A DNA stretch of 64,000 nt from NCBI GenBank assembly GCA_016187335.1, contig JACPJW010000001.1:1-64000 (forward strand), written 5' to 3'. Both the position numbers and the translations under genes were made by a program. The notes below the pieces were generated by a model. The model did not search any database, was not told the origin of the DNA, and worked only from the letters and a program-made list of their open reading frames with translations. The DNA comes from Candidatus Aenigmatarchaeota archaeon. GTDB lineage: Archaea > Aenigmatarchaeota > Aenigmatarchaeia > GW2011-AR5. This document shows, piece after piece, positions 18,043-50,337 of the stretch (position 1 is the stretch's first letter; every line of letters begins with the position of its first letter).

Positions 18043-18165
18043 AGCGGAGTGGAGCAGCCTGGAGTGCTCGTCGAGCAACTGGCACGAATGGCCCATAGGC
18101 ATGCTCTAGGATACCCGAAAGCAATTATGCCGGGAAGGTCGGCAGTTCAAATCTGCCCTCCGCTA
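18043..18165 (+). tRNA. Initiator tRNA-Met (CAT) with three introns at 29/30 (18074-18089), 37/38 (18098-18112) and 44/45 (18120-18136)
   Basis: Acceptor AGCGGAG/CTCCGCT (A1-U72), T arm GGCAG-TTCAAAT-CTGCC, three G-C pairs at the base of the anticodon stem; removing 16+15+17 nt gives a 75-nt cloverleaf; each intron fits a strict or relaxed BHB. Confidence 0.9.
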
Positions 18166-18370
18166 TATTTTTTCATTAAGACGAAAAGATGAAATGCCCT
18201 ATGCAACCATTTTGCAGGCAGCATGAAAATGCTTCGCATCTTCGGTTTGCTTTCTGCAAGTTGAGCATTTCTTTTGCAATCGCTTCGTTTATCGGAAAGC
18301 GGTTTTCGCGATGGCAAAATGAATCAGTTTTTGTTTCTTCTTTTTAAGCGCTTTCTTTCAAGGTATAATC

Positions 18371-43102: not shown

Positions 43103-44710
43103 ATGGCTGTTGAACATTTCACATGGGCTGACAAGATCGCTGGCGAACTGCTGAAAAGAGGCAGGAAGCATATAGTTCACGGCATGTGGACGCCTTCCGG
43201 CTACTTTCACATAGGCAACGCGCGCGGCGAGCTGCTTGTTCCTGCGATGGTGGCGCGCGCGGTGAAGGATGCAGGAGGCTCCGCAAGGCAGAATTTCCTG
43301 GCTGACGACTTCGACGACATGGACAAGGTCCCGGCCGGGATTGCTGTAAACGCAGAGAAATACAATGAGTTTTTAGGAAAGCCGCTGAGAGAATGTCCTT
43401 CGCCCGTGAAAGGCTACGACAACTGGGCTTCCTATTTCACGGAACTCGCGCTGGAAGACATGGAAAAGTTTACAGAGAAGCCGAAGTTCCATTCCGTTTA
43501 CGACGAATACAGGAAAGGGAAATACGACAAGGTGATAAGGATTGTTCTGGATAATGCCGGCAAGGTCCGCGACCTGTGGGAAATAATCGCAGGGACGCAC
43601 AAGCCGGAAAACTGGCTGCCCGTGATGGTTGTGTGCGAAAACTGCGGCAGAAGCGCCACGACAAAAGCGGTGTCATGGGACGGAAAAAAACTGGGCTATG
43701 TTTGCAGCGAGGCCCGCGAATACGCAAAGCCATGCCGTCATGAAGGAGAAATTATACCGCGCAAAGGCAACGTCAAACTGCCTTGGCGCGTCCACTGGCC
43801 TGCCACGTGGTTTGTTTTCGGAACCACGTTTGAATCGGCGGGAAAGGACCACTTCACGAAAGGCGGCTCTGTTGATACGGGCCACGCTTTCATGCGCGAA
43901 GTGTTCGGCAAGGAGCCGCCGTATCAGGTCGGCACGGAATTCATCCAGTTAGCCGGCCAGAAAATCTCCGGGTCGCGCGGCAACGTAATCACGCTTAAGG
44001 ACTGGCTGGAAGTGGCTGAGCCTGAGCTTCTCCGCTTCATGATGATTTCCTACCAGCCTTCGACAGCTATAGATTTCGACATGCATTCCGGAAAATTATT
44101 CCTGCTCGAGCAGAGGCACCACGAATCCGAGGCGGTTTATTACGGCCAGAAGTCGCTGGGCGAGAAAAGGGACAGTCAGCTGAAAAGGGAATACATGCTT
44201 TCGCAGGTAAAGAAGCCCGCAAAACAGATGCCTGTCCAGCTGGATTATTCCCTGCTCACGATGGTCGTCCAGATGTATCCGCACAAGAGCATGGGAAAAA
44301 TCATTGAGCTGCTGCATTCCCTGAAAGCCCTGAAGAAAGACAAACTGGCAAAAGGTGATGAGCAGAGAATTTCTGTCATGATAAATCGCGCGCGGGTCTG
44401 GGTGGAAAAATACGCGCCTGATGACTTGAAATTGAAGCTGAACGAAACAGCCCCGCTGCTCAACCTGACTGAAGACGAGATTGACGCCGTGTTCACTTTG
44501 AGCAAAGAGCTGAGCAAGGACTGGACCGAGCAGGACTTGCAGTCAAGGATTTACGAGATAGCGCGCGAGGAAGACGTGGAGCCGAGGAGGTTCTTCCAGA
44601 TTTTGTATAAAATTCTTCTCAACCGCGAATCCGGCCCGCGCCTTGGTCCGTTCATCATCGTGGTCGGGAAAGAAAAAATCAGGGAAATCCTTGATACCCT
44701 GAAGAAGTAA
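43103..44710 (+). CDS. lysS: Class I lysyl-tRNA synthetase
   Basis: TPSGYFHIGN, DDFDDMDKVP, KLPWRVHWP, FESAGKDH, KISGSRG, GPRLGPF. Confidence 0.95.
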   Translation: MAVEHFTWADKIAGELLKRGRKHIVHGMWTPSGYFHIGNARGELLVPAMVARAVKDAGGSARQNFLADDFDDMDKVPAGIAVNAEKYNEFLGKPLRECPSPVKGYDNWASYFTELALEDMEKFTEKPKFHSVYDEYRKGKYDKVIRIVLDNAGKVRDLWEIIAGTHKPENWLPVMVVCENCGRSATTKAVSWDGKKLGYVCSEAREYAKPCRHEGEIIPRKGNVKLPWRVHWPATWFVFGTTFESAGKDHFTKGGSVDTGHAFMREVFGKEPPYQVGTEFIQLAGQKISGSRGNVITLKDWLEVAEPELLRFMMISYQPSTAIDFDMHSGKLFLLEQRHHESEAVYYGQKSLGEKRDSQLKREYMLSQVKKPAKQMPVQLDYSLLTMVVQMYPHKSMGKIIELLHSLKALKKDKLAKGDEQRISVMINRARVWVEKYAPDDLKLKLNETAPLLNLTEDEIDAVFTLSKELSKDWTEQDLQSRIYEIAREEDVEPRRFFQILYKILLNRESGPRLGPFIIVVGKEKIREILDTLKK

Positions 44711-49128: not shown

Positions 49129-49181
49129 TTGATCATCTTAATATTCTCAGATTTCAAGTGTTTGCACCTACCCTTTTTATA

Positions 49182-49336
49182 TGCGAGGGGCCGGATTCGA
49201 ACCGACGAAGGCACTAAGCCACTAGGTATCTCACATGAGACCAGATGGCTCCATGGCCTGAACATAGCCTCAGGACCTAAGCTTGGCTTACAGCTGTTAC
49301 CTGATCTAGCCCCTTTGTCCACTCGGGAACCCTCGC
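49182..49336 (-). tRNA. tRNA-Leu (CAG) with introns at 30/31 (49305-49264, 42 nt) and 37/38 (49256-49228, 29 nt); an alternative TAG reading is possible
   Basis: Acceptor GCGAGGG/CCCTCGC-A, type II variable arm GGC-TTAGT-GCC, T arm GTCGG-TTCGAAT-CCGGC; 84-nt mature product; BHB folds for both introns. Confidence 0.85.
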
Positions 49337-49960
49337 TTAAGGCTTTTGAATTATTGCAACAATATCCATCGGGAACAATTTAAACGCTTTATGGCTGCTG
49401 TCAAAGACTCTTAGAACTTTAAAGCCGCTTTCTTCCAGAAGCTTTCTTAGCTCCTTTCTTGAGAAGAAGTAATAGTAACGATGATACTCATTATCTCCTA
49501 TTTTCCACCGCACGAAATCCTCCTTCCTTTTGAAATTAAGCCTTGGCTGGTTCTTGTTCCAGACGCTTATTATTGCTGACGATCCGGGCTTCATTACCCT
49601 CCACATTTCCATTACGGATTTCTTTCTTGGTTCTTCTCCCTCAATCTGGTGGATAACATTTGCCGCGACAACAGCGTCGAAAACATTATCCTTGAACGGC
49701 ATCGCATCTGCACGCGCGACGGCAAAAAAGGCTTTTATTTTTTCCTTAGAGGCTTTTTCCTTAGCAAGTTTGATCATTTTCTCTGCAAAATCAAAACCCA
49801 CATATTTTTTCCCTTTGATCATGTGTCTGCCAGATCCACATCCTAAATCAAGAATCAAGCCTTCTGAATTAGAGATGAAATCCACTATATCTTTATGGGG
49901 CTTTGTCCTCAAGCGATGCCATTCCGGAGCAATAGAATTCCATACTTCCCTTTGTTTCAT
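49337..49960 (-). CDS. Class I SAM-dependent methyltransferase
   Basis: ILDLGCGSGR, GFDFAEKMI, MPFKDNVFDAV; stop codon abuts tRNA-Leu G1. Confidence 0.9.
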   Translation of the reverse strand: MKQREVWNSIAPEWHRLRTKPHKDIVDFISNSEGLILDLGCGSGRHMIKGKKYVGFDFAEKMIKLAKEKASKEKIKAFFAVARADAMPFKDNVFDAVVAANVIHQIEGEEPRKKSVMEMWRVMKPGSSAIISVWNKNQPRLNFKRKEDFVRWKIGDNEYHRYYYFFSRKELRKLLEESGFKVLRVFDSSHKAFKLFPMDIVAIIQKP

Positions 49961-50022: not shown

Positions 50023-50269
50023 GCTCCCGTAGTCTAGCCCGGCAAAGGAGAAACTGCGTTTCTCCCTTTACCCTCTTCCTTTCTGAAAAAGAAGGGAATG
50101 AGGTTACAAGGAGAGAACCGTAGGTTCTTCTCCTGTTAGGATATCGGCCTCTCAGCACCCTTTCTTTTGAAAAAGAAAGTGTGCACGGAAAGAAAACTTC
50201 AGAAAAGCGTGAACGGAAAGAATGGGTGGAAGTTCGCCGAAGACGCGGGTTCAAATCCCGCCGGGAGCA
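50023..50269 (+). tRNA. tRNA-Glu (CTC) with a ~93-nt D-loop intron (about 50045-50137) and an 80-nt intron at 37/38 (50155-50234)
   Basis: Acceptor GCTCCCG/CGGGAGC-A, anticodon arm TCGGC-CT-CTC-AC-GCCGA, T arm GCGGG-TTCAAAT-CCCGC; 74-nt mature product; exact D-loop junction uncertain by 1-2 nt. Confidence 0.88.
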
Positions 50270-50337
50270 TAGAATTATCGGGATATATATAGCAACGGAA
50301 AAATTGAACGCTGACGTATATCCTGAAGAATATAGAA

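Follow-up and report, generated by a model that had tools for sequence, protein, structure and literature searches.

Structure of the tRNA-Leu locus

The window is a 64,000-nt stretch of DNA at the start of contig 2 (C2) of the Candidatus Aenigmatarchaeota genome G000, which comprises 1.01 Mb in 2 contigs and is 90.8% complete by markers. A tRNA-Leu precursor of 155 nt is encoded on the minus strand at 49336-49182. In the order of the gene, a common 5' exon is followed by two 7-nt anticodon exons, G-CT-TAG-G and G-TT-CAG-G, and then by a common 3' exon, and all exons are co-linear in one transcript unit (Table 1). This gene is called the dual gene below.

Table 1. Positions of the dual tRNA-Leu gene, its parts and the other genes described in the text (window positions unless C2 is given)
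Feature	Position	Strand	Remarks
Common 5' exon, tRNA positions 1-30	49306..49336	-	From sequence; contains H1 and the sole 30/31 5' splice site
Central-helix strand H1, GGCT	49311-49308	-	In the 5' exon
Intron a, 23 nt, position 30/31	49283..49305	-	From sequence
TCAGG, 5' arm of intron a	49304-49300	-	Used by both folds
TAG-selecting 3' splice site, AGCC + AA bulge	49288-49285	-	Within intron a
Anticodon exon A, GCTTAGG (G31-C32-U33-UAG-G37), Leu	49276..49282	-	Reads CUA, and CUG by wobble
Linker, 12 nt	49264..49275	-	From sequence
CCTGA, outer-helix arm in linker	49274-49270	-	From sequence
CAG-selecting 3' splice site, GGCT + AT bulge	49269-49266	-	In the linker
Anticodon exon B, GTTCAGG (G31-U32-U33-CAG-G37), Leu	49257..49263	-	Reads CUG
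Last intron, 29 nt, position 37/38	49228..49256	-	From sequence
3' splice site common to both paths, TGAG + AT	49233-49230	-	Within the last intron
Common 3' exon, A38 to discriminator A73	49182..49227	-	Long variable arm; CCA not encoded
SAM-dependent methyltransferase gene	49337..49960	-	ORF; PDB 5cm2; upstream, stop codon abuts tRNA G1
Glu(CTC), interrupted	50023-50270	+	Missed by default ARAGORN and Rfam
Arg(TCG), D-loop and 41/42 introns	56883-56732	-	Missed by default ARAGORN and Rfam
Initiator-type Met(CAT), interrupted	18043-18166	+	Missed by default ARAGORN and Rfam
Leu(GAG), G000	C2:254400	-	
Leu(TAA), G000	C2:161412	+	
Leu(CAA), G000	about C2:464460	+	

Two splice paths can be followed through the gene. 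Path 1 removes 42 nt (49305-49264) and then 29 nt (49256-49228) and leaves the CAG anticodon, and path 2 removes 23 nt (49305-49283) and then 48 nt (49275-49228) and leaves the TAG anticodon. On path 1, the 42-nt intron has a central helix GGCT/GGCT with two G-U pairs and a 5-bp outer helix TCAGG/CCTGA, and the 29-nt intron has a central helix TTCA/TGAG and an outer helix that is also 5 bp long. On path 2, the central helix of the 23-nt intron is GGCT/AGCC with four Watson-Crick pairs and a weak outer helix, and that of the 48-nt intron is CTTA/TGAG. The BHB arrangement of a 4-bp central helix with 3-nt bulges is present, with 4 of 4 positions paired, at all four junction pairs. By strict count, the outer helix in the window strain is 5 bp in both introns of the CAG path and 1 bp in both introns of the TAG path, so the cuts of the TAG path are relaxed motifs.

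These intron lengths and helices are, base for base, those given in the first-pass annotation of this locus, which had also held that either path yields an 84-nt product with a Leu anticodon. The ARAGORN calls agree: the two products spliced in silico were identified as tRNA-Leu(cag) and tRNA-Leu(tag), each with a canonical cloverleaf. The unspliced gene was not matched by ARAGORN or Rfam at default thresholds. When the ARAGORN threshold was lowered and introns were allowed, about 790 mostly spurious calls were returned and the gene was mis-called as Met, and this output was discarded. As a chance control, the 25-nt interior of the 42-nt intron was shuffled 200,000 times. In 0.06% of the shuffles an alternative Leu path arose with all four central-helix positions paired, and in 0.46% an alternative path with any anticodon arose.

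The methyltransferase gene next to the dual gene is syntenic with Leu(TAG) or the dual gene in many relatives. Its product matched a tRNA methyltransferase, PDB 5cm2 (E=2e-11, residues 20-185), besides many generic methyltransferases. It is possibly Trm9-like, judging from its sequence, and could modify U34 of the UAG product. This gene is context and is unnecessary for the splicing mechanism considered here.

Leucine tRNA complement of the genome

Most tRNA genes of this genome have one to four introns. Exactly four Leu loci were identified both with an RNA model built on the Leu 3' half and with a Leu profile that tolerates introns, namely the GAG, TAA and CAA genes in Table 1 and the dual gene, and the next match of the profile was Ser(GCT). 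In this genome, 90.8% complete by markers, neither method found a Leu(TAG) or Leu(CAG) gene apart from the dual gene. The usual archaeal set has five Leu anticodons, and the dual gene most likely provides the two that are missing from this set. A rough ORF count gave 7,753 CUG and 770 CUA codons among 21,199 Leu codons. Decoding of CUA needs UAG, and path 2 is thus required unless a TAG gene lies unassembled. The TAG product is not a side product, since it is the sole CUA reader found.

Distribution in Aenigmatarchaeota

Pattern searches were run on 371 genomes of the phylum and identified the tandem TAG and CAG layout in about 105 of them, from 22 families; the regions were fetched for part of the 371, and some of the 105 were seen as a match in tRNA context without the full 5' exon. 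Controls with a reversed pattern gave zero matches for the two tRNA-anchored patterns. A strict pattern applied to 185,579 species gave 30 hits, all of them in archaea and, wherever the phylum was named, in Aenigmatarchaeota. Matches of loose patterns outside a tRNA context were discarded (e.g. G103, G137, G152, G225, G228, G039 and G280). Three mis-anchored parses (L207, L241 and L088), an odd gene with A32 in G010 and a truncated gene in G025 were also left out of the counts.

Several layouts were present among the 77 distinct dual genes that were parsed in full. The TAG exon is contiguous with exon 1 and the CAG exon is reached through a 30/31 intron in 33 genes, and 32 resemble the window gene in having a further 30/31 intron in front. 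In another ten the CAG exon is preceded by a duplicated D-arm segment, and several of these use a 21/22 intron whose helices are GGCC/GGCC or GGTC/GACC. The order is reversed, CAG and then TAG, in two genes (G104 and G107), which have a perfect CGCA/TGCG site before the TAG exon. A TAG exon contiguous with exon 1 and followed by a canonical 37/38 intron was found in 42/77 genes. The TAG exon reads GCTTAGG in 73 genes and GTTTAGG in 4, and the CAG exon is present in all 77.

U33 is nearly invariant in tRNAs, and about ten relatives have C33 instead in the CAG exon, which may be tolerated, edited or decaying. These exons occur in several families (L003, L134, L145, L166 and L174, from G007, G050, G044, G037 and G362, and G356-G358). 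The A37 found in the CAG exon is not a defect, since stand-alone CAG genes carry A37 too. The gene of G010 that was left out of the counts (L009:1426-1554) is a Leu(TAG) gene in which the D-arm and anticodon arm are repeated within the intron, with a CAG loop that is atypical in having A32, and it is possibly a recent or decaying dual gene.

A stand-alone CAG gene was found by pattern search in 36 genomes and a stand-alone TAG gene in 47, and the overlap with the 105 dual genomes was zero; since the relatives are not independent, these counts are descriptive and overstate significance. The stand-alone TAG search covered 274 genomes that are at least 80% complete. The census patterns are insensitive to variable-arm or other introns and the genomes are incomplete. 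Because such patterns miss many interrupted genes, stand-alone TAG and CAG genes are described as not found in dual genomes, rather than absent from them.

Covariation of the splice-site helices

Sixty-seven genes are of the 30/31 type. Between exon 1 and the helix strand that precedes the second exon, 96% of positions in these genes are paired, and the pairing is 4/4 in 56 of the 67. When partners were shuffled among these genes, 76% of positions were paired on average and 84% at most, and none of 5000 shuffles reached the observed value, a comparison that is likewise descriptive and overstates significance because the relatives are not independent. The commonest helix pairs are CGCA/TGCG (23), CGCT/GGCG (11), GGCT/GGCC (10), CGCA/GGCG (7, with one mismatch) and GGCT/AGCC (4), with changes on both sides. 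For example, one pair switches from C-G (45) to G-C (14), and another appears as T-G, A-T, T-A and C-G. The spacers between the exons, 4 to 33 nt long, are otherwise unconserved. At the common 37/38 3' site, pairing with the TAG exon is 4/4 in 67/77 genes and pairing with the CAG exon is at least 3/4 in 75/77, with one mismatch to the CAG exon in 43/77. The same pairing logic thus recurs across different layouts.

Folding, strain comparison and splicing enzymes

Unconstrained folding of the precursor did not give a cloverleaf, and constrained folds were therefore used. With the tRNA frame imposed, rough energies of -53.3 kcal/mol for the CAG-selecting 30/31 fold and -54.5 kcal/mol for the TAG-selecting fold were calculated (a gap of 1.2). 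In the same rough calculation with intron a gone, the 37/38 fold at the TAG exon was at -51.2 kcal/mol, versus -44.8 for a second 30/31 cut toward CAG (a difference of about 6). The CAG exon sits inside the intron hairpin in this constrained TAG fold. Since the TAG fold is favoured in the model after removal of intron a, the choice of path is likely fixed at the first cut.

The assembly is backed by contig 10 of X5, from an independent study, which is identical over 49176-49489. Near-identical strains from a third study differ within the gene only in the intron a loop and within the last intron, and the block 49257-49289 is unchanged. The intron a loop has six substitutions in X7 and a 27-nt insertion in X8, both of which are single low-depth contigs (X7 depth 3.5). 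With the X7 changes, an outer helix of 6 bp in intron a directly adjoins GGCT/AGCC, which makes a strict motif for the TAG path. Small-share runs X9-X11 did not enter the analysis.

One EndA gene was identified in G000 at C2:410508-411113, encoding 202 aa with a lysine-rich C-terminal loop insertion of the N. equitans type (L3-type). No separate EndA beta subunit was found in this genome, and an RtcB gene is present. The L3 loop of EndA has been linked to heavy tRNA disruption in DPANN archaea, including those with alpha4-type enzymes (PMC5829648).

Proposed mechanism and alternative explanations

It is highly probable, judging from the sequences, that the locus encodes one pre-tRNA-Leu with two mutually exclusive 7-nt anticodon exons, which undergoes alternative splicing in cis through competing BHB folds. 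The broader reading, that Aenigmatarchaeota make two isoacceptors from one gene, in a widespread system with at least three layouts and a UAG:CAG ratio set by folding, is considered likely, with slightly less assurance. The census and the covariation suggest two products from one precursor, and we infer that both tRNAs are produced and charged. The first-pass annotation had proposed alternative splicing as a source of two isoacceptors from one gene, and had suggested looking for a separate tRNA-Leu(TAG) and for conservation of GCTTAGG in relatives. Its proposal gains support on both sides, from a Leu census of G000 that returned only dual, GAG, TAA and CAA genes and from a segment that is kept across the phylum. 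It had also taken path 1 as the default on account of its better flanking helices. The helices are indeed better (5 bp against 1 bp), but calling path 1 the default undersells the TAG path, whose exon directly adjoins the 5' exon in roughly half of the relatives and provides the only CUA decoder found, and which has a strict helix in X7.

In the proposed mechanism, splicing in cis would be carried out by the ordinary archaeal endonuclease EndA and the ligase RtcB. The GGCT at 30/31, together with the intron arm TCAGG, would serve as a docking site for two selectors. Pairing of GGCT with AGCC would release 23 nt and join the TAG exon, after which the 37/38 cut would release 48 nt that include the CAG exon. 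If it paired instead with the GGCT further downstream, with TCAGG/CCTGA as support, 42 nt that include the TAG exon would be released, after which the 37/38 cut would release 29 nt. Both routes would end at the TGAG-AT 3' site, and the ratio of TAG to CAG would be set by the competing RNA folds. If the cuts came in the wrong order, a product keeping both loops could result and would have to be rescued or degraded. Through wobble, UAG can read CUG, which could make CAG dispensable, and given the C33 exons it may be weak or lost in some lineages.

This last point bears on an alternative in which tRNA-Leu(UAG) is the only product made in useful quantity and also reads CUG through wobble; the CAG exon would then be left over from a fused neighbour gene or yield a minor product with no function. 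Such an outcome would fit the C33 variants, the C-A mismatches of the CAG exon in the 37/38 helix, the genomes that show TAG only (e.g. G017) and the established wobble rule that makes CAG dispensable. It is nevertheless unlikely, since in 22 families the CAG exon has been retained together with its bulge and helix strand, and these covary with exon 1 across spacers of very different length. In addition, it is the CAG exon that is directly joined to exon 1 in G104 and G107, stand-alone CAG genes share its A37, and the stricter motifs in the window are on the CAG path.

A very improbable converse is that only tRNA-Leu(CAG) is made from a gene with two introns, GCTTAGG being intron sequence and the TAG gene lying in an unassembled part of the genome. 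A separate TAG gene was not found in any dual genome searched, and the contiguity of TAG with exon 1 before a canonical 37/38 intron in 42/77 genes argues against an intron origin. GCTTA can pair with TAAGC in an intron hairpin, yet X7 does not have the TAAGC arm and still keeps GCTTAGG and AGCC. The strict 5-bp outer helices of path 1 and the incompleteness of the genome by markers are what this explanation has in its favour. It is scarcely credible that the internal segment is an intron-encoded box C/D guide and not an exon, even with a CTGA after the TAG segment in the window and guide-like elements in the Leu(CAA) and Leu(TAA) introns of the lineage. CTGA lies within 8 nt of the first exon in only 4/77 dual genes and a box-C-like motif was found in 0/77, and this absence of boxes largely refutes the guide. 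Also, the segment is a sense copy of the anticodon loop, not its complement, and has splice-site motifs on its flanks.

In G014, G019 and G027, separate TAG and CAG genes are adjacent, beside the same methyltransferase gene as the dual gene, and offer a route to studying a fusion origin. To judge from the sequences, tandem TAG and CAG genes probably collapsed through their introns to give the dual layout. A deletion would have fused the 37/38 intron of the first gene to the 30/31 or 21/22 intron of the second. Such a deletion would give exactly the layouts observed, in either order.

Comparison with known systems

The dual gene belongs to the BHB intron-containing tRNA genes. The multi-intron tRNA genes of Thermoproteales, ARMAN-2 and DPANN archaea with an L3-loop EndA, which have BHB introns at non-canonical sites, are alike in that cis-spliced introns lie at 30/31, 21/22 and 37/38, that both strict and relaxed motifs occur, and that the enzymes are the same; however, each of those genes is described as giving one tRNA, whereas the dual gene has shared, competing sites and two anticodon exons (PMC3239211, PMC5829648). 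The split tRNA-Glu(CUC/UUC) of Nanoarchaeum equitans is trans-spliced from a shared piece and interchangeable anticodon pieces at BHB motifs (PMC4090602), and the tri-split tRNAs of Caldivirga maquilingensis are isoacceptors trans-spliced from shared and alternative anticodon pieces (PMC4033280). The dual gene appears similar to these in its sequence design, in which shared and alternative anticodon pieces would lead to isoacceptors. However, the pieces of split tRNAs come from separate transcripts, and the dual gene has one 155-nt transcript with a choice between folds of one molecule. The pieces of split tRNAs are encoded at separate loci and joined in trans through a complementary leader and trailer; the exons here are co-linear within 155 nt, which places the gene outside that class.

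In Dscam, a docking strand pairs with either of the selectors and thereby keeps one mutually exclusive exon in spliceosomal splicing. The dual gene resembles it in the competing pairing, but the chemistry and machinery differ and the likeness is an analogy only. Archaeal pre-tRNA-Trp has a box C/D guide nested in its intron (PMC4090602), and is thus alike in having an intron that carries functional information; the dual gene has no conserved C/D boxes, and its nested piece is an alternative exon.

Isoacceptor sharing in archaea has so far been described for trans-spliced split genes. No report of a cis-spliced tRNA gene giving two anticodons was found in the literature searched, which included a minority of the subscription papers. 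Claims of composite archaeal tRNA genes, reportedly made in silico from single genomes in the mid-2000s, are said to have had no comparative or experimental support. If both products are made, an archaeon would here be using a protein endonuclease for alternative splicing, with competing folds deciding the outcome. The apparently missing Leu tRNAs across a DPANN phylum would then be explained, and the annotation of one tRNA per gene would fail there. The dual gene is also a small, natural and directly testable substrate for splice-site choice by EndA.

Other tRNA genes and minor observations

In the Leu(TAA) and Leu(CAA) introns of G000 (Table 1) and of L021, L023, L030, L065, L073, L074 and L095, the gene's own anticodon loop recurs as its reverse complement, CTTAAGT or CTTGAGT. 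This is followed after one base by a box-D-like TTGA, ATGA or TCGA, with a box-C-like ATGA later, and the fifth-nucleotide rule points to position 34. These introns look like they encode C/D guides for Um34 and Cm34, as in pre-tRNA-Trp. A similar guide-like element is present in Ser(TGA) of G015 and G031 (L105 and L106). An apparent second TAA loop in the Leu(TAA) gene of G000 was considered as a dual exon and rejected, since the palindromic CTTAAG is consistent with an antisense C/D guide.

A generic dual-anticodon pattern applied to other tRNA families was too loose and gave noise, and its one Gln lead was not clearly dual. In an incomplete census of class I genes in G000, the readable Glu, Gln, Lys, Val, Gly, Thr and Pro genes were separate. 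A tRNA-Pro(AGG) gene with A34 and an intron near 40/41 (C2:580467-580364, minus strand) adjoins Pro(TGG), and no Pro(GGG) was found in this incomplete census. Pro(AGG) has been reported for ARMAN-4 and -5 (PMC3239211). A sigma-70 promoter scan was disregarded as inapplicable to archaea. The window ORF at 43103-44710 (plus strand), recognised by eye, is presumably a class I lysyl-tRNA synthetase.

A duplicated 5' part lies upstream of a Met(CAT) gene (C2:739041, minus strand), and Thr(CGT) has a partial copy of a Thr 3' half in its vicinity (C2:490953-490892, minus strand). A few families of intron hairpins, CCCTTT..AAAAGCG..GGAAA and AACTTTT..AAAAGTT..ATCAAAA, are found repeatedly in G000, in tRNA genes that are unrelated and at different positions (e.g. 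the Glu(CTC) gene of the window, and C2:254400, 463654 and 723338), and this recurrence suggests intron transposition within this genome.
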